A stretch of DNA of 64,000 nucleotides from Blastocatellia bacterium. GTDB taxonomy: Bacteria > Acidobacteriota > Blastocatellia > Chloracidobacteriales > JADJPF01. How positions within the stretch are numbered: position 1 is the first letter of the stretch; each line of letters begins with the position of its first letter. Of this stretch, positions 24,715 through 52,810 are shown one piece after another. The position numbers and the translations under genes were made by a program. Where the stretch lies: NCBI GenBank assembly GCA_016713405.1, contig JADJPF010000020.1:616862-680861 (forward strand), written 5' to 3'. The notes below the pieces were generated by a model that had not been told where the DNA came from, searched no databases, and saw only the letters and a list, made by a program, of their open reading frames with translations.

Positions 24715-25011
24715 ATTAGTACACTGTAAACAAAGTTTTCTGAAATTTTATCTCTTAAAGCCCCAACGGGGCGGCATATTTGTAGCGCAGGGGTTCAACC
24801 CTACGTATGATAGTGTAATATTTATAGAGTCACGTAGTGACGACATAATTAAAATATTGTGTTAATTAGGTTTATTATGTTGTCGCTACGCGACTCTAGT
24901 TATGTATAATCACTAAGCTTATGTCTTACGACCTAGGCTACAATTATTTCGTCCCTTCAGGACTCAAGAAATTCAAAAAATATTAACTTACTTAGTTTAC
25001 GCTGTAATTAG
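24715..25011. mobile_element. MITE-like foldback element (alternatively a structured ncRNA)
   Basis: Terminal inverted repeats tacactgtaaac (24720-24731) and gtttacgctgta (24995-25006) are 10/12 complementary. An identical 5-bp attag flanks both ends (24715-24719, 25007-25011). The two halves are inverted copies of each other. The apical stem 24826-24849 / 24874-24897 is 21/24 Watson-Crick, and the 3 exceptions are all transitions. Confidence 0.4.
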
Positions 25012-31934: not shown

Positions 31935-32021
31935 GGAGAGGTGGCTGAGTGGTTTAAAGCAACGGTCTTGAAAACCGTCGTAGGGTTACTCCTACCGTGG
32001 GTTCAAATCCCACCCTCTCCG
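31935..32021 (+). tRNA. tRNA-Ser (anticodon UGA)
   Basis: Acceptor stem GGAGAGG/CCTCTCC. Anticodon stem ACGGT/ACCGT with loop CTTGAAA. Long variable arm GTAGG-GTTACT-CCTAC. T arm GTGGG-TTCAAAT-CCCAC. Discriminator G. CCA is not encoded. Confidence 0.95.
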
Positions 32022-35860: not shown

Positions 35861-36591
35861 TTAGCTAGAAGTTTTATAATGACTTAATTCATTACTAATA
35901 TTACTATATAAGTCTGTTTGCCATAGATATTCTATTTTTAACTCTTCTATTTTTCGTTTTCTTAAATCTATTGGAGCAATAATAATTTTAGTTTTGTCCT
36001 TTCCAACTGAATAAACTGTATAGAAAAGCTCTTCTATAGCCGTATCTCCAATAGGAATACAGCCAATTGTCACCGCTTTTCCATGAATAAAAATGTCGCC
36101 ACCTAAATTTGTTCTTGCTTGCTGGCTAGCAATTTTTCTATCAAACTGATTAGGATAATTTACTTTGATGGATAAATGATAGCTGCTATTAGGGTTAAGA
36201 CCTTCTGCCCTGTAGATTCCTTCTGGAATTTGACGATCTCCTTCTTTTAGCTTTGGCCCTAATTTTCCGCTAAATGCTGTAAAATCATAGGTCTTAATTA
36301 GTTGCCAGCTATCCTTTTTCCCCAAACTTCTAGCTTTTTCTCATCCTTTAATGCAATCAATGTAAGTTCTTTAAATTCATTAAAATTAATTGGCAATCGC
36401 TTCTTAACATCTGACTCAATGGTTTGAATTGCTTCTATTGTTGTTCGTTTTCCTGCTAATTTATATTTAATATTTTCAGACAGGGAAGAACGATAAAAAT
36501 AAATTGCTGTAATAAAAATAACACCTACCACCAATAAAACTATTAATTTATTATTAGCTATTTTATTTGGCAGATCTTTTTTCTCACCCAT
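35861..36591 (-). pseudogene. L,D-transpeptidase family protein (YafK-like), one frameshift
   Basis: 36298-36591 (N-terminal TM, ..KKLEVWGK) and 35861-36325 (DSWQLIKTYDF..GPKLKEGDRQIPEGIY..IHG..GCIPI) join by a 1-nt change in the homopolymer tract 36315-36323. Confidence 0.7.
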
Positions 36592-36597
36592 AAACAG

Positions 36598-36999
36598 TTA
36601 ATCCATATAAACTGCAACAGAGGTTTCTGTTTCCCAAAGTTTTACAGATATAACAGGGAGGTTTTGCAAGCGAGCATAATCAAAAATTAATTTAGCAATA
36701 TTTTCTGCTGTTGGATTTTCCTTCATTGTGTAAAAAACTTCATTACATTCTGTAAGTATTGGTACTAGAGGGTCATCTTCTCTTAGTAAAAGTTTATGGT
36801 CAAGTTCTGACATAATCCAATTTTGTACAATATTTTTAATATCAACAAAATCAACAACCATTCCCCGATAATCTAATTTATCTGTAGCTAAGGTAATTTC
36901 TACACGGCCATTATGACCATGCAAATCCTTACATTTTTTTGCGTAATCTCTTAACCTATGACCGTAAGAGAAGGAAATTTCTTTTGTTACTTGAAACAT
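36598..36999 (-). CDS. queD: 6-carboxytetrahydropterin synthase QueD / 6-pyruvoyl-tetrahydropterin synthase family
   Basis: ISFSYGHRLRDY..CKDLHGHNGRVEITL, size about 133 aa. Confidence 0.8.
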   Translation of the reverse strand: MFQVTKEISFSYGHRLRDYAKKCKDLHGHNGRVEITLATDKLDYRGMVVDFVDIKNIVQNWIMSELDHKLLLREDDPLVPILTECNEVFYTMKENPTAENIAKLIFDYARLQNLPVISVKLWETETSVAVYMD

Positions 37000-37083: not shown

Positions 37084-38160
37084 CTAATAGGGTGGAAATA
37101 ATCGTCTAAGCCCATGTAGCAAGATAATAATTATAAAAAAGATATTACGCAGTAATACTTGATAAATAGGTAATCTTAAAACTTTTCTTGGCTGGTTTGA
37201 ATTTAATGAGTTGCTTAACTCTATAGCTAAATTTTCTAGCCATTTTCTTGATCTAGGCCATTCAAATAAATTTTCAAGTAAATCTTTTGGAATACCTTCT
37301 TTACCAACTCTAGCACCAACAATACCCCCAACTATTGCAGCAGTTGAATCTGCATCCCCCCCACATTCAATAATTTGTGTAACGGCTTTAGAAAAGTTTT
37401 TTTGATTACTTAGCCAAGCATGAATAGCAACAGGTACAGTATGATAAACATAGCCTGAAACGCCTTTTGCTAAACCCAAATGCTTTGCAAAAGTAATAGT
37501 TAGCTCTTGTTTTTCAACGCTTTTAACAACCTGTTCAATTAAATTTATTAATTCTTCTCCTCCGCCAACAAGCAAAGGCCTTAGCTGTTGAAAAAAATCT
37601 TTTGGTGAAATATCTAGTTTTGTTGCTGCCATTCTAGCTGCAAAAGCAACCGTTAATGCTCCATATTCAGCTTTTGGATCTGTATGTGTAATTTTGGCAG
37701 AAGCTTTAACAAAAGCTTTTAGTTCTTCTAAATCCTCTATTGCTATTCCAAGTATTGCTGCTCGCATTGCTGGAGCATTTCCAGCAGAAAAGACACCGCT
37801 ATTATTAGGATTAAAACCTAACCAAAGTTTTATAACTGCTCGTAATGTTGCCCAACCTACTCCAGCAGGTAAACAAATTGCCCATAATCTTAATTGCCAA
37901 GAAAATTCTTTTTGAAAAGCTTTAACATCTTGGTTTGCAACAATTAGCGATTGTACTAACATAGCAGTATGCTCGGTATCATCAGAAATCATTCCAAACC
38001 TAAATAAAAATCTATATCTATTAGCTTTACCTAGTAATTTTGCTGCTCTACGAGGTGACAAAGCCTCATAAGGCAATCCCAACGCATCACCAACAGCCGT
38101 TCCAAGTATTGAACCAACTATTGTTGATTGATTAGAATTATTTTGTTGATTGTCTGACAT
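37084..38160 (-). CDS. ADP-ribosylglycohydrolase family protein with C-terminal hydrophobic anchor
   Basis: GSILGTAVGDALGLPYE, ..DDTEHT.., GGDADSTAAIVGGIVGA. C-terminal IFFIIIILLHGL. Confidence 0.8.
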   Translation of the reverse strand: MSDNQQNNSNQSTIVGSILGTAVGDALGLPYEALSPRRAAKLLGKANRYRFLFRFGMISDDTEHTAMLVQSLIVANQDVKAFQKEFSWQLRLWAICLPAGVGWATLRAVIKLWLGFNPNNSGVFSAGNAPAMRAAILGIAIEDLEELKAFVKASAKITHTDPKAEYGALTVAFAARMAATKLDISPKDFFQQLRPLLVGGGEELINLIEQVVKSVEKQELTITFAKHLGLAKGVSGYVYHTVPVAIHAWLSNQKNFSKAVTQIIECGGDADSTAAIVGGIVGARVGKEGIPKDLLENLFEWPRSRKWLENLAIELSNSLNSNQPRKVLRLPIYQVLLRNIFFIIIILLHGLRRLFPPY

Positions 38161-38202: not shown

Positions 38203-39992
38203 TTAGAACTTAATATTTGTTAGTAGTAATTTTCCGCCTGATTCACGCACTAGATAAAAACTTTCTTTGCCAGCAAGCTCTTGTAATCTAGCAAAAGAAG
38301 GTTTTTCTACCAACAAATAACAGCGATCGGGTTTTGCCCATAATGCCTTAAATTCTGTCATCAATAAAAACGTCTGGCGCGCCCGGAGCATATGACCCAT
38401 ATTCTAAATTATTGATCCTACCATTAAGTAAAACAGCTCTTTTGGATGAGCATAAAAAAAGACTGATGAAAATGTAATATTGATTATCAAAATTACTAGT
38501 CCTTTGGGAGCATCTACAAGGGCTTCGGCTAAAGGACGTGAGCCTAAATAAGGCTCAAATACCACTAAAGCTTGATGTGCAGCTTGAAAGAAAATAATCA
38601 TCATTACTGCTAAAATTACACAAGCACGATCTCGATTTTTCCTAGCAAAAAATATTACTGATAACCCTAGTAACATACTAATTAAAGCCATTACTAACGG
38701 CAATTTTAAGTAAGCAAATGAATTTAGGGTTAAGTCTCCAAAATGTCCTAATGATAAGGTGTAAACACCATAAACATCTTCATTTTTAGCTAGTGCATTA
38801 GAAATATCTCCTGACACAGGAACATTTCTTACTAGATATAAAATTGCAATTATGGCAATACTGGCTAGGGTAGAAACAATTGTGATTAACCATAAACCAA
38901 ATTTTGGTAACTCACTCTTTTTGTCAAGTGCTAGGCCAACTAGCAGGGCAACCGCAGGATAAATTGGCATTGAATAATATTCTTGAGTTGTGGAAAGACT
39001 AAAAAATCCCATAACGGTTGCTATCCAACACACAGCTAATAAACAAACTCGTTGCAAACGGTTTTTTGGTGTAAAAGTAAAAGCTAGTGTTTTAAGTGAA
39101 GGTAAAAGCTACTCCAGGAAATAACCAAACTAGGTTAAGTAACCAAAATGAAAGCAATGGGACAGTGTTATAGTCTTTTGGATAGCGGCGACCTAAAAAG
39201 CGCAAAATATGCTCATTAAAAAAATATAACCAGAAAAAACCACGATATTTTCCCGGTTCGCTAACAAGTGAAAAATCAAAGTAAGGAGGATTTTTTAAGG
39301 TTGCTAAAATATGCCAAGGGGCAACAATTACAGCTAAGACTAGGATAAAAACAGGTAAATTAACACGTTGCCAAACACGTTTTTCTAAAATTTGTCGGCT
39401 AACGACTAGGTATAAACCAGCGATTCCTATTGGAAAAATAAAAGCAATTAATCCTTTAAGTAAAATACCAAAACCAATAGAACTTGCTCCTAATACTGAA
39501 TAAAGCAAAGGCTTAGGCTCATCATCATCAATAATACGTAAAAAGCACCAAAGAGAAGTTGTAATTGTTAATGCTATCAAAACATCAGCAATTAAAATTC
39601 GAGTAAAAAGAAATAGCCCAATACAGCTTGCAATAGCTAGTCCAGCTTGAAACCCTGCTCGTTCTGAAAGAGTCCATTTGCCAAAAAGAAAAACAACCCA
39701 AGCTAAAGTTACTGCTCCAAGCGCGATTGGAAGACGTGCAACCCAGTCATGTACCCCAAAAATAGAGAAAAAACTAGCTATTAGCCAGTATTTCATAGGG
39801 GGGTTTTTCCATATAAGCAATTGTATTAAGGTGAGGTGTTATCCAATCGCCTGTTTCTAGCATAGTTCGCGCGATTTGTGCTTGTACTGCATCAACATCA
39901 TCCATTAAACCAGGAGGGGAAATGCAGGCTAGCAAAAACACACCAGCAGCAATTAAAATTACTCCCCATTGATAACGATTAACTAAGCTCAT
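38203..39992 (-). pseudogene. GT39 (ArnT/PMT_2-like) membrane glycosyltransferase, several frameshifts
   Basis: Fragments 39774-39992, 39092-39820, 38404-39057 and 38203-38400 assemble into one multi-TM protein (..[23 protein letters not shown]|[14 protein letters not shown]..). Lesions lie at the G6/T5 run 39798-39808, near 39085-39095, and as a compensated pair at 38357 and 38424-38427. Confidence 0.75.
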
Positions 39993-41157
39993 TTTTTACT
40001 TCACCTTCTATAGGAATAAATCGCCCACCGGCGACAATTCGGAAACGACGGTTACGCCAAGAAATTTCACTTCCTAAAAAACCACCTAACCAGGAAGCAA
40101 AACTAATAAAATCTTGTAGTGGAATTAAAAATAAATATTTGTAAATAGTTTTATCTTCTAAAAGATAAACTCCAACTTGAATTGCTAAAAACCATCTAAT
40201 TATTAATGTAAATAAAAATAAAAAAAGGCCATAGGGAAAAGGTAAAAGAAAAATTCCTAGAAATGCCCAAGATAATCCATAAGTAAAACCTTGTCCAATG
40301 TAGCCAGATGGACGAGAAAAACGAGTACTACGATTCCAGCGAAGTCTATGCTTAAAACTAAGTAAAAAACCTGGGGATGTTGCATGGTGATTAATTACAT
40401 GAGTTGATAAAACTACTTCAGCACCTTTTTCTGCTACCCAATTGCCTAGCACAAAATCATCAGCTAAAAAGTCCGCCATTGCAGCAAATCCACCTATTTG
40501 AGCCAGGTTAGATTTACGAATAGCCATTGATGGGCCAAGGGTGAATTTCATCCCCTCTAACCATTCCGCCACAATTACCCCAGACATAAACTCGCTACTC
40601 ATTCCCAAAGCTTCAAGCTTTGACCAAAAATCATTTGCTGCAACTCCGCGATAAAGATTAGTCATTGCTCCAACTTTTTCAGATTGAAAAGCTTCAGCTA
40701 TTGCATTTAAGTAATCTTTTGCTACAGAAGTATCACTATCAGTAATTACCAGAATATCAAAGGTTGCTACTTTTGCCATTTGTTCTAAACTATATACTTT
40801 AGCATTAGCATAAGGTGGATTTTCAGCAATTACTAGACGTGACTTGACTTGTGGATAATGTGAAATAAGCTTATTGACTACTTCAACAGCAGGATCATCT
40901 TTAGTATGAACAGCAAAAATAATTTCAAATTTAGGATAATCTAGTAAGTAAAAACTTGTTAAATATTCTTTTAATCCATCCTCAACACCTTTTAGAGGCT
41001 TTAATATGCTGATTCCTAAACTACTAGCCATAAAAGCTTTAGGTCGTCTTTTAATCAACTTTTTTGCTGCAATAATTCCTAGAAAATAATAAACAATGCC
41101 ACCAATGATAATGGCTGTTAAAATTAGCTGTAAGACAATAACTGCCCAATGCAGCAT
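39979..41157 (-). CDS. GT2/GT21-type glycosyltransferase (ceramide glucosyltransferase / HpnI-like)
   Basis: N-terminal [16 protein letters not shown], DxD as ITDSD, (Q/R)xxRW as KHRLRWNRS, and C-terminal TM helices. Its 3' end overlaps the GT39 start by 14 nt. Confidence 0.7.
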
Positions 41158-41361
41158 AGTTGCTCCAAAATATAAAAAATTTTTAGTTGAAATTTTTATA
41201 ACCGGCTAGTATATCAGCAGCAAAAAATAATTCTACAGATGCTAGAAATTTGGGTGGTTTTAGACTAAATTTCAACTACTTCTGCTTTATGTTGAAATTT
41301 TAGCTAATACTGTAGAAAAAATAATTAAGCGTGATTAAGCCTAATCAAAGTTAGTAGCTAC

Positions 41362-42630
41362 TTAAACAGTAGCTACTTGTTCATTTTTAGCTATAGTGTT
41401 TTTACTAGTTATAAAGTCATTTCGGTAGCGCAGTAGCCAAAATAAAAAGCCTATAGATAAAACTATTGTTAAAGAGAGAGCTAAAAGAGGTAATTGATTT
41501 AATAAAAAGTAACTTGTACTAATTGCAGCAATTAAAATTAATCTAAAAATCTCTGCTGGAAATGCCCAAGATTTTCCTTCAAACATCGCTCCCCAAATTA
41601 ATGAAGTAAATAAAATTAGTATAATTCCTAGCACTATTTGAGATAGTGGTAAAGCTTTTTCAAAAAACATTAACCCACTTGTAGCCAAAGCTACAAAAAT
41701 AAAGTTTACAAAAATATAAATAGCTAACCCTGATGAAATTTTGGTATTAAAACGAACAGCCCTTTCAGGTTGAATAATTTTTTCTATATCATATTTAGCT
41801 TCTAGTCCGCGTGGCTGCCATCCTGGACGCATAAACCAAACTTTAATTTTATCAACAAAATAAGGTGCTTTTTGAGCCTGCTTAAATAAATCTACCCAAT
41901 AATGAAAATTTGCCCAAATAGGATTCCAACTTGTATAAGGTGAAACTGTTCCATAAACAGGTTCTTCTTCTTCCTCTTGAAATGAACCAAATATTCGATC
42001 CCAAATAATAGAAATTGCTCCATAATTACGATCTAAATATTTAACATTACGGCCATGATGGACACGGTGATGTGCTGGAGTATTGAAAAACCACTCAAAA
42101 AAGCCTAATTTGCCTATTGTACGCGTGTGAATCCAAAATTGATAAAGTGTGCTAATTGATTCTGCTGTAAGTAAAATAGCAGGATGTACACCTAATAAAC
42201 TTAATGGAGCATAAAAAGGCCAAATGCTAAAACCAGAAAACCATGCCTGACGCAAGGCTACAGATAAGTTATATTCTTCGCTGTGATGGTGAACTACATG
42301 AATGGCCCAGAGAAAATTTACTTCATGACTTAATCGATGCCACCAATAATAAAAAAAGTCTACACCAACAATTGCTACTACCCACATTAGCCAAACTGGT
42401 AATTCAAAAAGTGCATAATTTTCATATAGATAGAAATGTCCTGCTAAAAGTAAGCCTTTTTTTAAAATATGAATTACTTGTTGACCAATACCACAAGTTA
42501 AGTCTGTAATTGAATCATTAAGCCGATAATAATGAGCTTTACCTTGTCGGCGAGCAACAAAAATTTCTACCATAATCAAAATAAAAAATACTGGAATAGC
42601 TAAGGCAATATAACTAGCACAACTTATCAC
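41362..42630 (-). CDS. fatty acid hydroxylase/desaturase-superfamily membrane protein with extra C-terminal multi-TM region
   Basis: Three His boxes: HRLSHE, HVVHHH, HHRVHH. The additional hydrophobic C-terminus is about 150 aa. GTG start. Confidence 0.75.
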   Translation of the reverse strand: MISCASYIALAIPVFFILIMVEIFVARRQGKAHYYRLNDSITDLTCGIGQQVIHILKKGLLLAGHFYLYENYALFELPVWLMWVVAIVGVDFFYYWWHRLSHEVNFLWAIHVVHHHSEEYNLSVALRQAWFSGFSIWPFYAPLSLLGVHPAILLTAESISTLYQFWIHTRTIGKLGFFEWFFNTPAHHRVHHGRNVKYLDRNYGAISIIWDRIFGSFQEEEEEPVYGTVSPYTSWNPIWANFHYWVDLFKQAQKAPYFVDKIKVWFMRPGWQPRGLEAKYDIEKIIQPERAVRFNTKISSGLAIYIFVNFIFVALATSGLMFFEKALPLSQIVLGIILILFTSLIWGAMFEGKSWAFPAEIFRLILIAAISTSYFLLNQLPLLALSLTIVLSIGFLFWLLRYRNDFITSKNTIAKNEQVATV

Positions 42631-42766
42631 CTTTCAAATAAATAACATAAATAAAAATTTTGGATTAATTGAAGCCTTCTAATTATGCTTGTTTTTGGTT
42701 ATCTAGCCAAGCTAAATTGGTAAGACCACTGGAAAAATTTTACAAAAATTTTATTAACAAAATAAC

Positions 42767-42801
42767 AAACCCAGCAGAATTAATTAGACTCTACTGGGTT
42801 T
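42767..42801 (-). terminator. hairpin downstream of the Tes-like gene
   Basis: Stem aaacccagcag/ctactgggttt (10/11 paired) with a 13-nt loop, followed on the minus strand by T-rich gttattttgtt. Confidence 0.45.
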
Positions 42802-42832
42802 ATCGGTTTATTTAGTTAAATAACTTTACAGA

Positions 42833-44872
42833 TTAATCACCAACACCGGCTGGAGTATTATCTTTACGTTTTTTCACACCAAGCTGTAGTAATTTACCTT
42901 CGGCTGGTTCAGCTTCTCCAACTTGTTTAAGAACGTTTTGTTGATAAAGTTTTTTCATCATTCTAGCTTCTTCTCTAGCATTCATTGGCTTAGTCTTATC
43001 ACGGTCACGAATTGCATTAGCTGCTTCATCATTAACTATTAATTTGTGATCAAAAGAGCCAAGATTTACATTTCTGTTATTAGCATAAACTTCGTGTTTT
43101 CCATATTCCTTGTACCATTTAGCTACAGTAGCATTTTGGTGCATATTCTCAATAATATTTCTCCAACCAATACCAGTATTATAGGCACAGAAAGAAATCT
43201 CGCCTTCTTGAGTACCATAAGGAATAATACACATTTCTGTACGGCGGAAATCGTAATTAAAGAGGTCTTGGAACCACATACCAGCAACAAACAAGAAATT
43301 CCATGGGTCGCTACGTCGTTTTTCAATATCTTCACGAGTGCGATCACCTGATACTTTACCGTAACTCTTACCAGTTAAGCCAAATGACTTATCAAATTTC
43401 TTAAACATTGCTCCTAGTGAAAAGCTCTTAGGTGCGCCATAAGGATTATAATTTTTAAGTAAGGCTAAACCCATCATAAGATTAGACATCCATTTTCCAC
43501 GGGCAGCATCAGTAATTTTTGTCATATCTTGGACTAGTCCAGGAATATTTAGAAATTGTGGAACAGGTGCCATTTCTTTAGTTTCTTTGTTAACCATTAA
43601 TGCTGTACCTACACCACAATTAGGATGGCAACCACAGCTTACTTGTCCCCATTCAGCCTTTGGGCCAAATGCTAAATCAGCAAAATCAGCAAAGGAACTC
43701 ATTAAAGAAAGTGGGAACCAATCACGAGTAGGTTCGGTTATGCTCATTTGGTTTTTAACGTCATGTGCTAAATGTGAAAGGGTATAGCGTTGACGTATAC
43801 GACGCTCATCGGTGATTTCTTCATCGCGGCCAGTAAAGGAAACTGGTTGAAAAGCAAGGAAGGCAATCTTTTTGGGGTTTTGTAATGCAAACTCTACGAT
43901 TCTACCTACTTGATCATTATTAACACCATTGACTAGGGTTGTAACAAGAACAATTTCAATACCAGCATCATGGATATTGTTGATAGCTCTTAACTTAACA
44001 TCAAAGAGGTTGCCGATTTGACGATGGCTATTAGCATCATTACCAATGCCATCAAATTGTAGATAAACATAGCGCAAGCCTGCTTCAGCAGCTTTTCTAG
44101 CATATGTCATATCTTTAGCAAATTCAATTCCATTAGTAGCAGCTTGAACACTGTTATAACCAACTTTTCTAGCATAGCGAATAGCATCAAAGAAATAAGG
44201 TGACATTGTTGGTTCGCCGCCAGAGAATTGTACTGACATTTGACGACGTGGCTTAATTTGCATTGCATTATCTAAAACTTGTTTAATGTCGTCAAAGTTT
44301 AGTTCATGAACAAAACCAACTTGGTTTGCGTCCATAAAACAAGGGTCACACATCATGTTACAACGGTTAGTAAGGTCTACTGTTAAAACTGCACCTCAAC
44401 CATGTTTAATTGTGCTGCTGCCATAATTATGTAATTTCTCGTCATTGTGCGCCCAAATATCACGACCTGGAAACATTGCTTCAATGTGTTCTAGGAATTT
44501 GGAGTCTATTGCCATCATGTCTTCGATTTTGCCATGTTTATGGCATTCTTTTACCATCCAAACTTCGCCATCACGCTCAATAATTTGAGCTTTTACTTCG
44601 CCTACTTGCTCATTGATTAATACACGATAATCTTTTTCACCATTAATAATCTGGTTTCGTGCTTCAATAACACATTTTGGGCAAAGTGAATCTGTAGTAC
44701 GAGGCCAACCTAGTACAGGCTTGGATTTTTGCCAAGACTTGAGCATAGGTTTTTCTGACCATTTAGGGGTAAAAGATGGGTTGGGACGAAATTGATTTAA
44801 TTTTTGAATTCCATTGAATGCTTTGCCAGCAACTACGCTTAATCCCTTTTCTACCATTTTTTTCAATGACAT
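42833..44872 (-). pseudogene. large radical SAM enzyme of the COG1964/MJ0619 (Tes, GDGT-MAS) type, single in-frame TGA
   Basis: N-terminal Cys ribbon SLCPKCV..VKECHKHG. TGA at 44396-44398, then GAVLTVDLTNRCNMMCDPCF (CxxxCxxC). C-terminal CGCHPNCG and FLFVAGMWFQDLFNYDFRRTEMCIIPYGTQEGEISFCAYNT. Confidence 0.7.
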
Positions 44873-44962
44873 GTTTTTATCTTTCTCCTTAAGCAGACTT
44901 AATTGGTCGCATAATTTAGGGATTTTATTCCCCTAGTCTTAAAATATTGTTTTTAATCACCT

Positions 44963-44984
44963 AAAAAATTAGCCATATGGCTAA
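44963..44984 (-). terminator. weak hairpin plus T6 between the two radical SAM genes
   Basis: 16-bp palindrome ttagccatatggctaa (6-bp stem, 4-nt loop), followed on the minus strand by TTTTTT. Confidence 0.3.
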
Positions 44985-45019
44985 GAACAAAATAAAGCTT
45001 GTTATTAAGAAAATTAACT

Positions 45020-46131
45020 TTATCCAGCATTAACTAATTCTTCTTTTTCGGACTTGGTTGAAGTTGCTTTTGCAGCTACTTTCTTAGATTTTTTAGAAGT
45101 TAGTGATACTAGTTTTAACTCTTCAGCAATAGCTCGGCCTGGGGTTAAAGTAAGGCTTACTGGGTCTGGTAAAGTTTGTGGAGCCGAACGCCAGTTATCC
45201 ATTACTGCTACTTTATGCACACAAGCTACTGTGCAATAAGGTGCGCAATCTTTTTTGGTGTTAAACTCTCGGACAATATCCTGTGTTGTATATTGCAGTA
45301 AATCTACTCCAGGATAGCCTCGGCGTTGAGAACAATAGTGTACTAAACCATCTTCACAAATATAAAGGTAACGACTACCAGCCCGACAACGCCAATCATT
45401 TGCTTTTCCAGTAGCTAAATTATCCTGAAAGCGATTAAAGCGAGCATAACTAGTTTTTCCTAAATCTCTTAACTGCATAAAGATATTTTGTTCAACTTCA
45501 TTAAGTTGACCTAGTTGTCCGTGATGGTCATGAATAATTCCTACAGTAGTAGAAAATCCTAGCTCTACGGCTCGTTTTCCAACTACTAGGGCATCTTCTG
45601 GGGTACGAATACCACCGCCAATAACAGAGTTGATATTTACTGCAAAAACTGCATGTTCTTGGAGCATTTGCAGTTTTTTATCTAATACTTTTAAGCTTTT
45701 AACAGAAATTTCATCAGGTTGGATATTATCAATGCTAATTTGCATATAATCCAAACCTGCTTCATTTAGTCGTTTGATACGCTCTGGCATAAGCAGATAG
45801 CCATTTGTAATCATACCAACTAACAAACCTGATTTACGGGCATGAGCAATAATTTCATCTAAGTCTGGGTGTAAAAGAGGCTCACCACCACTAAAAACCA
45901 AAGCAGAAAGACCTAGTTTAACTAAGTGGTCAATTCGCTTTTTCATTGTCTCTAAAGCAATACCCTTAGAGTAATCATCATATTCATTGCAATAAACACA
46001 AGATAAATTGCATTTGCGAATAGGTATAATATGAGCAACTAATGGATGGTTAGTTGATGTAAGTCCTTTGGCGATAAACTTTAGCTCTTTTACCTTTCGT
46101 TGCCAAGCGGCACGAGTTTTTTTACATTCAT
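45020..46131 (-). pseudogene. radical SAM enzyme with Cys-rich (SPASM-like) C-terminus, one frameshift near the 5' end
   Basis: The listed ORF 45020-45946 is N-terminally truncated. The same frame upstream reads ..AHIIPIRKCNLSCVYCNEYDDYSKG... ATG 46131 is reached by adding one base to the T7 run 46117-46123. C-terminus: CRAGSRYLYICEDGLVHYCS..CAPYCTVACV. Confidence 0.7.
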
Positions 46132-46566: not shown

Positions 46567-48408
46567 TTATTTTTTTTGATCTGCTAATTCATTTAAGGCT
46601 GGATCAAGTTCTGAAAGATTGTCATTTGATTTGTCTAATTCTCTTAATTCTCTTAATTCTCCTAATTCGCCTATTTGTAAAAATAGGCGATCGTAGACAA
46701 ATAAATGTAACCAAACTAAAGGAAAACATAATGCAGGAAGTAAGGCTTTTGCCCAGAAATTAAACCAGTTTTGTCTTAATTTTGAATAAAATTTAGCTAA
46801 AATTATACGTAAGAACAATAATATTGCTAAAATAGGGCTAATTGTTAATATTGCTTGATTTAAAGGAATATTTAATATTGTTTGGACATGCTCAATATTC
46901 CAAATAATGCTTAAAATAGAAAAAATACCAAGAAGAATTAAAAGAAAAACTAGAAATAATACTGTTAAACTAATAGTTCTTACTTGAGAATTTAAGCGAA
47001 ATACTTTAAGAAATCTTTCAGTAGCTACTTTAAGCTGAAATAAAAAGTCTTCAGTAGGTTGGCGCATTAGAGGAGCAATTTTTAGAAAATTCCAATTTAT
47101 CTTATTAGCTTGTTTTTTAATAAATACTTGTTGAAAAGATGTTTGGTCAAAAGTTTGCTCACTAAGCTTATAGCCATAATACATCAAGGAATCTGCTTCT
47201 AAGTTAGTAAATGAATCTAAATGCGTTCGTACTCGTGCTAATAACTGTTGAACTTTTGGATCTATGCCAGTTTTATCACTATCTAACTTAGTAGTTGGTA
47301 AATCAGGGCTTAGAGAATTATTAGAGTCTGATAAGTGGTGTTTAGTAGTAATTGGAAAGTTTTTTCTTAAATGAATAAAAGCAGTATGGTTTTTATGCTT
47401 ACCTGTTAGCATTCTTAAGAGTTGTTCTTCTCTAAGTCGATCTCCTAGCATACTTCTTACTCTTAGAAGTAAACCATCTGTACGTAAATCTGGGCGCGTT
47501 TCAAACTCTAACGGACGACAAGCATCACTAATAATAAAATCTGTACAACCAAAAGTAAGTAACCCTGCAATTCCTTGGTTATCGTGTACTCCAGCATCAA
47601 CTAATTGTAGTTGAATATCATCTGGATATAGCCCATCTATTTTTATTGGTGCAAAAACACCAGGCAGTGCAGCAGAGGCAGCAACAGCGTGGCTTAAAAG
47701 AAAATTTTTATGCTTATCTTTTAATTTTTGGTAGCTTTCTGGTCTAAGTAATCTAGGGTTTTTATCTACACTTTGCCAATCTAGGGTGTCACGGGGATGT
47801 TCTCCCATATGAGTAGCTTCAAAATACCAATTGCGACCAGTGTTTAAGAGGGCAGCATTGATAAGCAAAACGGGGACTTTTGCTTGGCGGGATGGATTAT
47901 CTTTTAAGGGGTAAAAATTATTATTTTCTCCTTTAGGAATAATCTTTAAATCAGACATTTTTATAGGTTCTTTGCTGTTTTTATTAAAAACTGGTCTATA
48001 AAAATGCTCTTCATAAAGCTCTGCTAAACGTATGCTAGAATTATAGTTATCCCCAGCCATACGGATAGTCTTAAAAGGATTCTTATAAGCTGTCATAATA
48101 ATATTTTTTTGAACAGCTTTAAGAAAATCTACTTCTATTTTTTGTAAGATATCTAAGTAATCTTTATTAGAAATTTCATCGTCAGACTTGGTTTCCAGTA
48201 AATTTTTTAGATGTAAATAATAAAGTGCGCCAATAATGGAACCACCTGAGACAGTAGAAATAACTTCCACCTGTCTTAATAATCCTATTTCAGCTAGATG
48301 TGCTAGTAGGCCAATATGGAAGAAAGAAGCACGAAAACCGCCCCCAGAAAGTGCTAAGCCCAATTTAGGTAGATTAGGATTAGCATTTTCTAAGAACGGT
48401 TTTAACAT
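46567..48408 (-). CDS. patatin-like phospholipase with C-terminal transmembrane region
   Basis: GLALSGGGFRASFFHIG (oxyanion Gly-rich loop), GxSxG as VSGGS, catalytic Asp in DAGVHDNQG, and C-terminal hydrophobic helices. A 9-nt x4 repeat at 46635-46670 encodes (G/R)EL. Confidence 0.8.
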   Translation of the reverse strand: MLKPFLENANPNLPKLGLALSGGGFRASFFHIGLLAHLAEIGLLRQVEVISTVSGGSIIGALYYLHLKNLLETKSDDEISNKDYLDILQKIEVDFLKAVQKNIIMTAYKNPFKTIRMAGDNYNSSIRLAELYEEHFYRPVFNKNSKEPIKMSDLKIIPKGENNNFYPLKDNPSRQAKVPVLLINAALLNTGRNWYFEATHMGEHPRDTLDWQSVDKNPRLLRPESYQKLKDKHKNFLLSHAVAASAALPGVFAPIKIDGLYPDDIQLQLVDAGVHDNQGIAGLLTFGCTDFIISDACRPLEFETRPDLRTDGLLLRVRSMLGDRLREEQLLRMLTGKHKNHTAFIHLRKNFPITTKHHLSDSNNSLSPDLPTTKLDSDKTGIDPKVQQLLARVRTHLDSFTNLEADSLMYYGYKLSEQTFDQTSFQQVFIKKQANKINWNFLKIAPLMRQPTEDFLFQLKVATERFLKVFRLNSQVRTISLTVLFLVFLLILLGIFSILSIIWNIEHVQTILNIPLNQAILTISPILAILLFLRIILAKFYSKLRQNWFNFWAKALLPALCFPLVWLHLFVYDRLFLQIGELGELRELRELDKSNDNLSELDPALNELADQKK

Positions 48409-48445: not shown

Positions 48446-49012
48446 TTATCGGTAATAAGGGTTTGCACCACCAGCATGATCTGTAGCATCTAAGATTTGT
48501 CCAATGCTAGGAACTGCTTCACGAATCATACGTTCAATTCCCATTTTCAAAGTCATATTAGCCGAGCCACAACCTTGGCAACCGCCACCCATGCGAATAT
48601 AAACATTATTGTTTTCTACATTAATTAAATCTACAAAACCACCATGTGAAGCTACACTAGGATTAATTTGTAGATCTAATACTTCTTGAACTTTTTTTCT
48701 AAGCTCTTCTGTTGATAGAGTGTTAGCATAAACTTCTGGTTGTAAAAAAGCGCGAATAAAGCCGCCAATACGTTTTCCAATAACTGACCAATCATCATGA
48801 CCATCTTTTACAACAGTTAATACATTGTCAGCTATTTCCGCTTTTTTGATTTCAGGAATGCTAAAAAGGTTTTCTGCTAAAGCGTTTCCTTTTGCAGATG
48901 TTTTGCTTGTAAAACTAGCAGTACCATTAATTAGCGGTCTATCTGCCATAAAACGGCAAGTATTTATGTCTTGTTTATCTACATTAGCTTTAATCATTAT
49001 TGCTTGACTCAT
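48446..49012 (-). CDS. NifU/Nfu-type Fe-S cluster scaffold/carrier protein
   Basis: Nfu_N-like N-terminal half. C-terminal HGGFVDLINVENNNVYIRMGGGCQGCGSANMTLKMGIE with CxxC. Confidence 0.8.
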   Translation of the reverse strand: MSQAIMIKANVDKQDINTCRFMADRPLINGTASFTSKTSAKGNALAENLFSIPEIKKAEIADNVLTVVKDGHDDWSVIGKRIGGFIRAFLQPEVYANTLSTEELRKKVQEVLDLQINPSVASHGGFVDLINVENNNVYIRMGGGCQGCGSANMTLKMGIERMIREAVPSIGQILDATDHAGGANPYYR

Positions 49013-49857: not shown

Positions 49858-52810
49858 ATGAAGTGGACTAACACACTAAAACATTTTTTCTTGTTTTTAA
49901 TTTGTTTTCAATTAATGACTTTAGGCTTGCCAATAGCAAACAATGAAGTTTTAGCTAAACCTAGAACATCAAAAAAGCTAGAAATGAATCCTGAAATACT
50001 TCCTGGACTTGCTGCAAAAGTTGATGTTGTGGAAGATGAATTTGGAACGCCACATATTTTTGGCAAAAACTTTAAGGATGTTTTTTTTATGCAGGGCTTT
50101 TTGCATGCACGGGATAGATTTTTCCAAATGGATGTTACACGTCGCACGGTTGAAGGCTCTTTAGCTGAATTACTTGGCGTTGGGCCAAATAACAGTATTT
50201 TATCTAGCGATGTGCAATTGCGAGGCTTAAATCTTAAAGCTTCTGTCACCAAAGCTTTATCAATGATGCAAAAAGAAACTCGACAATTCTTAAAAGCTTA
50301 TAGTGATGGTGTTAATGCCTACTTAAAAGACAACCCACTACCAGCAGAATATCAAGCATTAAAAATCACCCAAAAACGTATGTGGACGGAAACAGACTGT
50401 TTATTAGTTGGTAAAGGTTTAGCACTAAGTCTTTCTTTTGACACAGGCGATATTAACAACACATTAGCTTTACAAGCTTATCAAGCAGCAGGTATGGCGC
50501 AAGGTTTTGATGGTTCAGCATTATTTTTTGAAGATGTATTTCGTGTAGCTCCTTTTGACCCAAGTTTTTCTATTCCTGACGCAACGGGTCGGCCATTTTC
50601 TACCACTGGCACTAAAGCTAATAATCAAAGACTTAGTGCTAAAGTCCAAGAGCAGCAAAAATGGGCTAAACATATTTCTGACACAATTAAGCCTGAAACT
50701 TTAGAAATGGCTCAAGACTACTTAAATAAAGTTAAAAATATTCCTCTGCTAGCTAATGGTGCTGAAGGTCATGACCCAGATCGTGGAAGCAATTGGTTTA
50801 TTTTAAGTGGTAGACTAACTGATTCTGGCGCACCGCTTTTAAATAATGATCCTCACTTAGGGTTTAATACTCCTCCAATTTGGTATCAAGTTCAACTTAA
50901 TGTTACAAAAGGCAAAGGCAAAAAATTACTTAATGTTACAGGAGTAAGTTTAGCTGGGGTGCCTGGTGTGGTTTTAGGCCATAATGATGATATTGCTTGG
51001 GGTGCAACCACTTCAAACTTTGATGTTACAGATGTTTATCAAGAACAAATTAAAGCACAATTTGGTAGTGTATCAATTATTCATGATGGCAAAGAAGAAC
51101 CTGTAATATTTCGAGATGAGTTTTTCCGAGCAAATCAAGTGGTAGATGGTATGAATGATAATTTAGTTATGATACCTGCTAGTGATTCTGTTCCTGGCCG
51201 ATTTCCTTCTGTTCCACGTCGTAATGGTGGCCCAATTGTATCTATTAACTTATCTGCTCAAACAGCTTTAACACTGCAATATACTGGCTTTGGGCCAACT
51301 TTAGAAGTAGAAACATTTCTTGGCTTTAACCGTGCAAAAAATGTTGATGATTTCAAAAAAGCATTAGAGTTTTTTGATGTTGGATCACAAAACTTTTCTG
51401 TGATTACCACAACAGGCGATATGGCTTATTTTACAACAGGCGAAGTGCCTATAAGAGAAGACCTAGAAGCAGGTAAAGTTAACGGCGCACCTCCGTTTTT
51501 AATTCGTAATGGTGTAACTGGTAATGAATGGATGAGCATTAGAAATCGTCAACCAAACCAAGTCTTACAATATGAAATTTTGCCTTTTAATGAGCTACCT
51601 CAAGTCGTCAATCCAACCAACGGTTTTGTAGTTACTGCAAACGCTGACCCAACAGGTATTACAGCCAACAACAACCCATTTGAGCGTAAACGAGCAACAG
51701 GGGGAATCTATTATCTAGCTGCTACTGGTTATGCTTCGGGTGCGCGTAATGCACGATTAACAAAAGATATTCAAGAAGCTATTGCAAGCGGGCAGAAAAT
51801 TACAGTTGAAATGGCCCGACGTTTTCAAGCAGATGTAAGAATGCGTGATGCAGAAATTTTAATGCCATTTATTCAACAAGCTTTTGCTAATGCTACAGCC
51901 GTAAATGCTCCAACTGAACTTTCTGCACTAGCCAAAGATGCAGGTATAAGTGAAGCTGTAAATCGCTTTAAGACTTGGGATTTTAGCACCCCTACAGGCT
52001 TAAAATCTGGTTATGATTCTTTTGTAGCTTTTGGCAGTGACCCTTCACAAAAACAAATTGATGATAGTGTTTCTACCACAATTTATAGCCTGTGGCGTTC
52101 ACAAATGGTTAGAGATACTATTGATGCCACACTTCAATCAATGCAATTAACTAGACTTCCTGATAATGCTACCTCTATGGCATCTCTTCGTAATTTACTA
52201 GATAAATTTTCATCCAACAAAGGAAAAGGTGTTTCAGGAATATTTTTCTTTGGAAATACTGGTTTAGATAGTGCAAGTCCTGAAGTACAAAGAGATTTTG
52301 TTATTTTACGTAGCTTGCGACGTGCTTTAGATTCATTGGCGGCCAGATTTTGCTCTAGCTTTCCAAGGCTCTACCAAACAAAGTGATTATCGTTGGGGAG
52401 CTTTACATCGTGTTTCCTTCCCAAGTATGTTAGGGGTAAATACTGATTTTACAATTCCTTCTGTTAATGGCAAGTTCCAATCTCCAGTTCCAGGGCTTTT
52501 TGGACTACCTAGAGACGGAGGTTTTGATGTTCCAAACGCTTCTGGACATTCAGTTAGAGCTAGGGGAGTCAATGATTTTACTTTTAGAAGTGGGCCTAGC
52601 AAACGCACAACTATTGTTATGAAACCTGGGGCAATTGATTTTACTACTGCTATACCAGGTGGACAAAGTGCAGCACCTAATAGCAAATTCTTTGATAATT
52701 TACTTCAGTTTTGGTTAACAGCAGATGTTTATCCTGTACGTGATATTACTAAGCCAACTGCGGCACCAAATGAAAAACGTACTACTTTTGCTCCATTCAG
52801 AAAAGAGTAG
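49858..52810 (+). pseudogene. penicillin acylase (Ntn-hydrolase, S45) family protein, one frameshift
   Basis: Signal peptide, FMQGFLHARDRFFQMD, nucleophile context DRGSNWFILSG, NDPHL. 49858-52386 joins 52427-52810 through ..SLA|(G)PDFALAFQGSTKQSDYRWGALHRVSFPSMLG.. with the lesion near 52339-52345. Confidence 0.85.

Follow-up and report, generated by a model that had tools for sequence, protein, structure and literature searches.

In a stretch of 64,000 nt from a Blastocatellia bacterium assembly (contig JADJPF010000020.1; hereafter the window, whose own positions serve for all coordinates) we analysed a gene on the minus strand, at 42833-44872, that encodes an enzyme of the radical S-adenosylmethionine (SAM) type. 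Our computational analysis shows that its product is a genuine member of the Tes/GDGT-MAS family, belonging to a long bacterial clade, and suggests that it most plausibly couples lipid tails to give membrane-spanning lipids of the iso-diabolic acid type; we put the probability of this reading at about 55%.

By direct translation the gene has 679 codons with a single in-frame TGA, codon 159 (44396-44398), so that the first-pass annotation of this DNA, made from the letters alone, had described it well as a protein of about 680 amino acids (aa) interrupted by one TGA. All the motifs quoted there were found, specifically CPKC at residues 64-67, CHKH at 110-113, CNMMCDPC at 171-178, CGCHPNCG at 413-420 and a C-terminal block running FLFVAGMWFQD...SFCAYNT. 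Pfam recognises Zn_ribbon_HMPTM and Radical_SAM in the protein, and the NCBIfam model of Tes (NF045702) matches it with 321-323 bits over profile positions 2-483 of 486, TrsS being second with 215 bits. The sequence of PDB entry 7TOL (GDGT-MAS) matches residues 92-566 with an E-value of 1.3e-59. Regarding the fold, an AlphaFold2 model (predicted local distance difference test score, pLDDT, 84; predicted template-modelling score 0.84) was compared with the PDB by Foldseek, which placed 7TOM/7TOL on top with an E-value of 2e-36, a target-normalised template-modelling (TM) score of 0.88-0.89 and a root-mean-square deviation of 2.9 Å, the next-best match being MoaA with 3e-9. The four domains of the GDGT-MAS fold, which are the rubredoxin domain, the N-terminal auxiliary domain, the radical SAM core and the C-terminal lipid/cluster domain, are all present in the model. 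Taken together, the profile, sequence and fold matches establish membership of the Tes/GDGT-MAS family, and the earlier assignment to the Tes/GDGT-MAS/MJ0619 type was right at the level of family and fold.

The metal ligands described by Lloyd et al. (PMC9433317) were mapped onto our alignments. The rubredoxin-type Fe site is kept as C64, C67, C110 and H113 (C9, C12, C33 and H36 of MJ0619), and these residues are invariant or nearly so in one of our alignments. The radical SAM motif CX3CX2C is kept as well, as C171, C175 and C178, aligned to C98, C102 and C105 of MJ0619. Towards the C-terminus, the cysteines in CHPNCG (413-420), EMCII (548) and SFCAYN (562) align with cysteines of the 7TOL C-terminal domain, and Met532, within AGMWFQD, aligns with a methionine of that domain; of these C-terminal residues, Met439 is named in PMC9433317, as the labile methionine. 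The protein also has parts of its own, namely around 55 additional N-terminal residues, a confidently predicted N-terminal helix, an insertion of 20 residues inside the rubredoxin knuckle and around 100 additional C-terminal residues. It is a divergent relative of Tes and not a plain Tes.

The same divergence is shared by a whole group of bacterial proteins. Among representatives drawn from a search of 1.84 billion cluster representatives, canonical Tes proteins score 474-645 bits with the Tes model and those of the long clade 204-323 bits, the members other than the window protein reaching 204-299. In a midpoint-rooted neighbour-joining tree the long clade, with the window protein in it, is separate from canonical Tes. 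We also scanned one genome per species, which gave at least 598 confirmed relatives, and examined the best 80 of them, all metagenome-assembled genomes (MAGs). Their proteins are 66-83% identical to the Tes-like protein and come from Blastocatellia/Pyrinomonadaceae, Terriglobia, Bryobacterales/Solibacteraceae, Gemmatimonadota, Eisenbacteria and a few others; the nearest other species among the matches listed is a Blastocatellia MAG. The long clade is therefore very widespread and tightly conserved, in Acidobacteriota and Gemmatimonadota.

By profile, sequence and fold the window protein is of one family with the archaeal GDGT-MAS/Tes proteins (MJ0619, MA_1486, Maeo_0574; structures 7TOL/7TOM), with which it shares the rubredoxin-type C-X2-C...C-X2-H and the CX3CX2C motif; in the auxiliary-cluster domain at the C-terminus its cysteines and methionine align with theirs. 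However, it is only 27-33% identical to archaeal Tes and, since its bacterial host has lipids based on fatty acids, its substrate must differ from the archaeal one. Mss of Thermotoga and Thermoanaerobacter (Sahonero-Canavesi et al. 2022) offers an analogy, because it is a radical SAM enzyme that joins fatty acyl chains tail to tail by a C-C bond; nevertheless, its radical SAM family is another one, which was found in anaerobes only and reported to be missing from Acidobacteria.

Bacterial homologues of Tes are well on record. Zeng et al. 2022 counted 456 of them, Acidobacteria included, and proposed a role in the synthesis of brGDGTs, which are branched glycerol dialkyl glycerol tetraethers; acidobacterial homologues have been put forward as brGDGT candidates in PMC8941075, PMC10087280 and PMC11214058; and Chen et al. 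and Halamka et al. 2022, following the Tes lead, reported that Solibacter usitatus, a species with two Tes homologues, produces brGDGTs. The gene in the window is one of these acidobacterial homologues (Zeng, Chen, Halamka 2022; Garcia 2024). The lead followed in the first-pass annotation is thus not new, and the window yields no new kind of candidate, since acidobacterial Tes homologues have been on record since 2022. Published attention has gone to the closer homologues of Solibacter and Koribacter, with 40-42% identity to MA_1486, whereas the window protein appears to fall in a more distant class, to judge from its E-value of 1e-59 to MJ0619, which resembles that of the single homologue of Edaphobacter aggregans (4e-61, 32%). 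What we can add is a sharper list of candidates, in which a widespread long clade with a different complement of metal sites is set apart from canonical Tes-like proteins, and two recurrent partners are singled out, namely a small radical SAM enzyme that has no name (rSAM2 below) and a carrier of Fe-S clusters of the Nfu type.

By analogy with GDGT-MAS, 5'-deoxyadenosyl radicals derived from SAM would abstract hydrogen from the terminal carbons of two lipid tails, which in an acidobacterium would most plausibly belong to glycerolipids and be acyl or alkyl chains of the iso-C15 type. Their joining would then proceed by way of a transient carbon-sulfur bond to the C-terminal cluster, and the products would be membrane-spanning lipids of the iso-diabolic acid type. 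The small radical SAM enzyme and the Nfu carrier, whose genes lie upstream on the same strand, may assist, either in the supply or repair of a cluster or in a second modification of the tails. Tail-to-tail coupling of iso-branched chains appears to be the likeliest function on account of the homology and because these bacteria offer no other candidate.

Several points weigh against this reading. The score of 321-323 bits lies below the curated cut-off of 450 bits, so membership of the Tes equivalog is not reached. Furthermore, the cysteine triad of the N-terminal auxiliary [4Fe-4S] cluster (C73, C77 and C80 of MJ0619) is not kept, the aligned residues being H, S and I, and a conserved histidine is the only ligand of that cluster that is retained. 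In most genomes the Tes-like gene lies among housekeeping genes (surE, pcm, dedA) with no lipid context, and the organism of the window is represented by a MAG. From the literature, formation of a membrane-spanning lipid has been demonstrated for none of the bacterial Tes homologues (PMC11868695), whose activity was described as unconfirmed as of 2025-2026; of the two homologues of S. usitatus it was the closer one (40% to MA_1486) that drew attention; Sahonero-Canavesi et al. found Tes homologues in just 3 of 14 Acidobacteria that produce iso-diabolic acid (E <=1e-50, identity >=30%); and the archaeal paralogue MA_1114 made no GDGT, which means that family membership does not guarantee activity.

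These points lead to an alternative that we regard as possible but on the unlikely side, in which the long-clade protein is a paralogue of the Tes family with another job, such as macrocyclisation within one lipid, cross-linking or C-S chemistry on a lipid, or the modification of a non-lipid substrate. The score below the equivalog cut-off, the match to TrsS with 215 bits and the loss of one of the four GDGT-MAS metal sites all fit a paralogue, and so do the additional N- and C-terminal residues; in place of the canonical CPxxCGxC the whole long clade has a conserved LH(N/D)HGSS. Its identity of 66-83% across phyla is unusually tight, its neighbours in Pyrinomonadaceae are housekeeping genes, MA_1114 is a precedent, and MJ0619 itself was first assigned as a pterin methylase, as the Pfam name HMPTM still records. 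Nevertheless, according to the model the whole GDGT-MAS fold is kept with a TM score of 0.88, including the C-terminal domain with the lipid pocket, and the cysteine and methionine positions that align with the C-terminal cluster domain are conserved. Moreover, a representative with a canonical score, P0363 (584 bits), is also without the N-terminal triad, and therefore this loss is a difference and not a disqualification, the site not being obligatory within the family. Finally, genes resembling that of Gms, the synthase of glycerol monoalkyl glycerol tetraethers (GMGTs), cluster with the long clade.

A biological need also speaks for tail coupling: Acidobacteria of subdivisions 1, 3, 4 and 6 make iso-diabolic acid without Mss (PMC13159169), an enzyme for which the screen of Sahonero-Canavesi et al. 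gave no match in Acidobacteria. The strong conservation of the long clade, the clustering of gms homologues with tes and the recurrent neighbours described below speak for it too. The long clade lies at the very threshold of the screen with E <=1e-50 and identity >=30%, and published screens asking for 30% identity or more to archaeal Tes could have overlooked it, which would explain why just 3 of 14 producers gave a homologue. We tentatively propose, as a guess that may well prove wrong, that the long clade, which is without the N-terminal auxiliary cluster, is the missing iso-diabolic acid synthase of aerobic Acidobacteria and Gemmatimonadota, with an Nfu-type carrier providing or mending the cluster that donates sulfur and with rSAM2 as a further partner in some lineages. 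Palaeotemperature and pH proxies in wide use rest on brGDGT lipids, and the tail-coupling enzyme of aerobic Acidobacteria exists so far as a candidate only.

The surroundings of the gene in the window, all on the minus strand, are as follows, given from upstream to downstream.

48446..49012, minus strand: Nfu-type Fe-S cluster carrier of 188 aa, two genes upstream of rSAM2 (open reading frame, ORF; domains Nfu_N and NifU of Pfam in the public product, which is nearly identical)
46567..48408, minus strand: patatin-like phospholipase of 613 aa with a C-terminal transmembrane tail (Pfam Patatin, 83.7 bits)
45020..46131, minus strand: rSAM2, small radical SAM enzyme with CNLSCVYC, 369 aa in the public copies (Pfam Radical_SAM, 84.5 bits; three-frame translation)
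44969..44984, minus strand: between rSAM2 and the Tes-like gene, a weak hairpin with UUUUUU after it (-7.8 kcal/mol, z -1.5)
42833..44872, minus strand: Tes/GDGT-MAS-family radical SAM enzyme of the long bacterial clade, 679 aa (profile, sequence and fold searches)
42764..42804, minus strand: hairpin of 17 pairs resembling an intrinsic terminator, immediately past the stop of the Tes-like gene and with a U-rich tail (-25.7 kcal/mol, z -8.0)
41362..42630, minus strand: membrane protein of the FA_hydroxylase superfamily with an extra C-terminal transmembrane domain, alkylglycerol-monooxygenase-like (Pfam FA_hydroxylase, 102 bits)
39979..41157, minus strand: GT21/GT2 glycosyltransferase, HpnI-like, 392 aa, intact (Pfam Glyco_transf_21, 138 bits)
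38203..39992, minus strand: GT39/PMT_2 (ArnT-like) glycosyltransferase, 598 aa in the public copies, broken here (PMT_2, 67.5 bits)

For the four neighbours on the same strand that had been named beforehand, Pfam and NCBIfam agree with the families proposed, and the hydroxylase can be described more specifically as alkylglycerol-monooxygenase-like. The range of 39979-46131 given to the five genes holds for four of them, whereas the GT39 gene, at 38203-39992, lies outside it.

Several of these genes are damaged in the window, but the lesions are errors or private changes of this assembly, and the population carries the Tes-like gene whole. When the GT21 product, which is undamaged, was looked up as an exact protein, this locus was met on 14 public contigs, including one in NCBI GCA_017303955.1, named 'Acidobacteria bacterium'. 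Six of these contigs were compared with the window, to which they are 99.3-99.7% identical over 11-21 kb, and none of the lesions is present in the six. In the public contigs the five genes are whole, with 369 (rSAM2), 679 (Tes-like), 418-419 (hydroxylase), 392 (GT21) and 598 aa (GT39, with 569 aa in one assembly). The public product of the Tes-like gene (P0001) and the window copy differ at H150Y, R159* and H402F only. Codon 159 is CGA (Arg) in the public contigs and TGA in the window; H402F (43667-43669) is a three-base change from CAC to TTT; and H150Y (44423-44425) falls in the LH(N/D)HGSS motif conserved in the clade. Altogether the gene has five private base substitutions in three codons, all of them changing the protein and none silent. 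The absence of silent changes is odd for natural drift between strains that are 99.5% identical.

We also considered a recoding of the TGA, either as selenocysteine, as in the related TrsS family, or under genetic code 4/25. This was rejected, because the codon is CGA in the six near-identical contigs and its position is conserved as R, H or K across the clade; moreover, TGA ends 5 of the 44 long ORFs of the window, so that the genetic code is standard.

As for the other genes, the frameshift in rSAM2 is an insertion of AA at 46122-46123 (A5 to A7), private to the window, and the hydroxylase gene has a 1-bp deletion at 42617, among its first codons. The GT39 gene is split into four pieces by seven small indel events between 38358 and 39803, including C5 to C6, T5 to T4 and, twice, ACAC to AC; of the 10 frameshifting indel events in the 21 kb for which public contigs allow a comparison, these make up 7. 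Several pairs of these indels restore the frame within 20-80 bases (for example -1 and then -2), and this suggests a stretch of low-quality assembly and not ordinary mutation. The damage also reaches a YkuD-domain gene (35861-36591), split by a 1-bp deletion at 36319 where the public copy has 243 aa, and a penicillin amidase gene (49858-52810), split at about 52386 into 842 and 127 aa where the public copies have 984 aa. The lesions thus belong to this assembly and not to the locus, and those in GT39 amount to seven indel events instead of one lesion.

The same data could be read as decay in this particular strain, with the Tes-like, rSAM2 and GT39 genes being true pseudogenes whose function has been lost. 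That every private substitution in the Tes-like gene alters the protein would fit such a decay, and so would the concentration of frameshifting indels in GT39. We consider it quite unlikely, as the frameshifting indels fall in homopolymer and dinucleotide runs, just as a read or assembly error would give, several offset each other within tens of bases, and the unrelated YkuD and penicillin amidase genes are broken too. Furthermore, the genes are whole in six public assemblies that were made independently from the same population, and the change from CAC to TTT is implausible as a single mutational event.

Regarding the neighbourhood, the first-pass annotation had proposed a compact locus for making and decorating lipids, and this proposal did not survive the conservation test that the annotation itself had named. 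The intact neighbours were searched by tblastn in the loci of the 80 species, which included flanks of up to 10 kb on either side, and the hydroxylase, GT21, GT39 and patatin genes adjoined the Tes-like gene in none of the 80 other species loci; rSAM2 adjoined it in one (L007). Even in four close relatives, with Tes-like proteins 81-93% identical, the block erodes. Here rSAM2 is adjacent in all four, Nfu in three, patatin in two, the hydroxylase in one and GT21 in none. The gene orders in these relatives, with the identity of the Tes-like protein first, are the following.

93%: Nfu - patatin - rSAM2 - Tes - hydroxylase, with GT21 absent and a PMT_2 gene 4 kb beyond
86%: Nfu - patatin - rSAM2 - Tes
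83%: Nfu - rSAM2 - Tes
81%: rSAM2 - Tes

Thus, it is very unlikely that the five genes form one locus whose products build lipids that are C-C-coupled or span the membrane and afterwards add hydroxyl groups and sugars to them. The five genes do lie on one strand and all are of families compatible with lipids or glycolipids, to which the flanking patatin phospholipase adds a further lipid flavour; the GT39 start overlaps the GT21 stop by 14 nt; and the 93% relative keeps the order from Nfu to the hydroxylase with PMT_2 genes nearby. Nevertheless, apart from the failure of conservation in the 80 species and in the close relatives, gaps of 150-200 bp separate the genes of the block, and the strong terminator stands directly after the Tes-like gene, with a third hairpin on the stop codon of the hydroxylase. 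None of 200 shuffled sequences folded as well as the terminator at 42764-42804, and the weak hairpin at 44969-44984 is at most a leaky terminator. Both of the hairpins that had been reported to bracket the Tes-like gene are therefore real, and the earlier caution that this was a neighbourhood rather than a proven operon was justified by the terminator that follows the gene. Together with the eroding block in the relatives, this strong terminator means that the hydroxylase, GT21 and GT39 genes are best read as a neighbouring set that is transcribed separately, in which GT21 and GT39, with their overlap of 14 nt, are probably co-translated and form a unit of their own. Although related to lipids, the alkylglycerol monooxygenase (AGMO)-like hydroxylase, the pair of GT21 and GT39 and the patatin are neighbours specific to the species and not a conserved pathway, and the glycolipid gene neighbourhood of the Tes-like gene is incidental. 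The surE, pcm, DedA-family and Tad-pilus neighbours found in Pyrinomonadaceae were likewise set aside as synteny of the lineage, with no lipid meaning.

Only rSAM2 and Nfu have any recurrent association with the Tes-like gene. The rSAM2 family, of around 341 aa, is 60-68% identical across Terriglobia, Binatia and others, was unnamed in the sources searched and has nine invariant cysteines, which are those of CX3CX2C plus six in a twitch/SPASM-like C-terminus. Elsewhere it is mostly found on its own, and in five look-up loci (L087-L091) it lies divergently beside a gene for a SurA/PpiD-like chaperone. Among the 53 metagenome loci with enough flank (of 80, L096-L175), a Tes-like gene follows rSAM2 in one, L121, from a distant lineage. 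A function for rSAM2 could not be taken from structure, since the model was mediocre (pLDDT 66) and retrieved only generic twitch/SPASM radical SAM folds.

Gms was tried as an identity for rSAM2. According to PMC11214058, Gms is a SPASM/twitch radical SAM enzyme near AhbD with an N-terminal domain of the COG4001 type, and its gene clusters with tes; in the same study, Garcia et al. 2024 reported that gms homologues cluster with tes in Acidobacteria. Compared with this published description, rSAM2 has no Pfam SPASM match, is without the N-terminal extension and scores just 66-75 bits with AhbD/NirJ, so the identification found no support. A better likeness was found in a Terriglobia MAG (L073:4956-6584), where a SPASM radical SAM protein of 543 aa, similar to AhbD/NirJ (230 bits with AhbD/NirJ2) and with an N-terminal extension of 130 aa, is encoded 930 bp downstream of a long-clade Tes-like gene whose product is 70% identical to that of the window. 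This pair agrees with what has been published on bacterial homologues of Gms whose genes cluster with tes.

The Nfu gene lies upstream of the Tes-like gene and on the same strand in the window and in three of the four close relatives. Genes for NfuA-like proteins (around 200 aa, with GGGCHGCG) stand directly beside the Tes-like gene in 7 further loci, of which five, from Gemmatimonadota, have them convergent and 33-150 bp away (L057, L065, L066, L068, L083) and two, from Acidobacteriota, divergent (L064, L079). These three independent arrangements across phyla hint at a functional tie. NfuA is known to restore the sacrificial cluster of lipoyl synthase. GDGT-MAS forms a transient bond between a substrate carbon and a cluster sulfur, according to PMC9433317; taking both together, we infer that an Nfu partner is mechanistically plausible.

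In the relative with 86% identity, genes for a B12-binding radical SAM protein and an ATP-grasp protein (L093:3346-4737) lie just upstream of the Nfu-patatin-rSAM2-Tes order. B12-dependent radical SAM enzymes methylate or cyclise archaeal tetraethers, and so the B12-binding protein of this relative could be an enzyme that modifies the tails.

The remaining neighbours were compared with named systems. The hydroxylase resembles AGMO/TMEM195 in having an FA_hydroxylase di-iron domain followed by a C-terminal domain with several transmembrane segments. Its match to AGMP_C is below threshold, with 14 bits (E 0.05) against a cut-off of 28.3, covering 85 of the 88 profile positions, and its homologues, which the Joint Genome Institute names 'alkylglycerol monooxygenase', in some cases match weakly, reaching 25 bits, which is also below the cut-off. 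We know of no bacterial AGMO-like member that has been characterised. A PTPS-family gene at 36598-36999, with 92.5 bits against the QueD equivalog cut-off of 89.25, was considered for a tetrahydrobiopterin link to the AGMO-like gene; it is separated from the block of five genes by two others.

The GT21 protein resembles HpnI, the glycosyltransferase that adds glucosamine to bacteriohopanetetrol, as well as the ceramide and diacylglycerol glucosyltransferases of GT21, by full-length matches to the HpnI model and to Pfam Glyco_transf_21. The identification as HpnI itself (TIGR03472) was rejected, at 306.9 bits against a cut-off of 310 over positions 4-370 of 373, and genes of the hpnJ, hpnK, hpnH and shc types were not found among the ORFs annotated, which are most of the larger ones of the window. 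For GT39 the ArnT equivalog (NF009784) is not reached, with 83 bits against a cut-off of 567, and the match is to the general PMT_2 domain only. In the patatin gene there is a 9-bp in-frame indel polymorphism at 46653-46673, in the repetitive GELGELRELRELD tail, and the longer allele is shared by the window and one public contig (L006).

Some minor observations concern the rest of the window, whose low GC content, around 34%, fits the origin of the DNA, as does the Blastocatellia MAG that is the nearest other species among the matches listed. An ADP-ribosylglycohydrolase gene at 37323-38101 has 17 of the 35 private substitutions of the compared region, in three patches and with no indels, and these patches look recombined or hypervariable. 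An 87-nt tRNA was found at 31935-32021. At 24918-24964 there is an Acido-Lenti-1 small RNA, with 39 bits against a gathering score of 37, which fits an acidobacterial origin.

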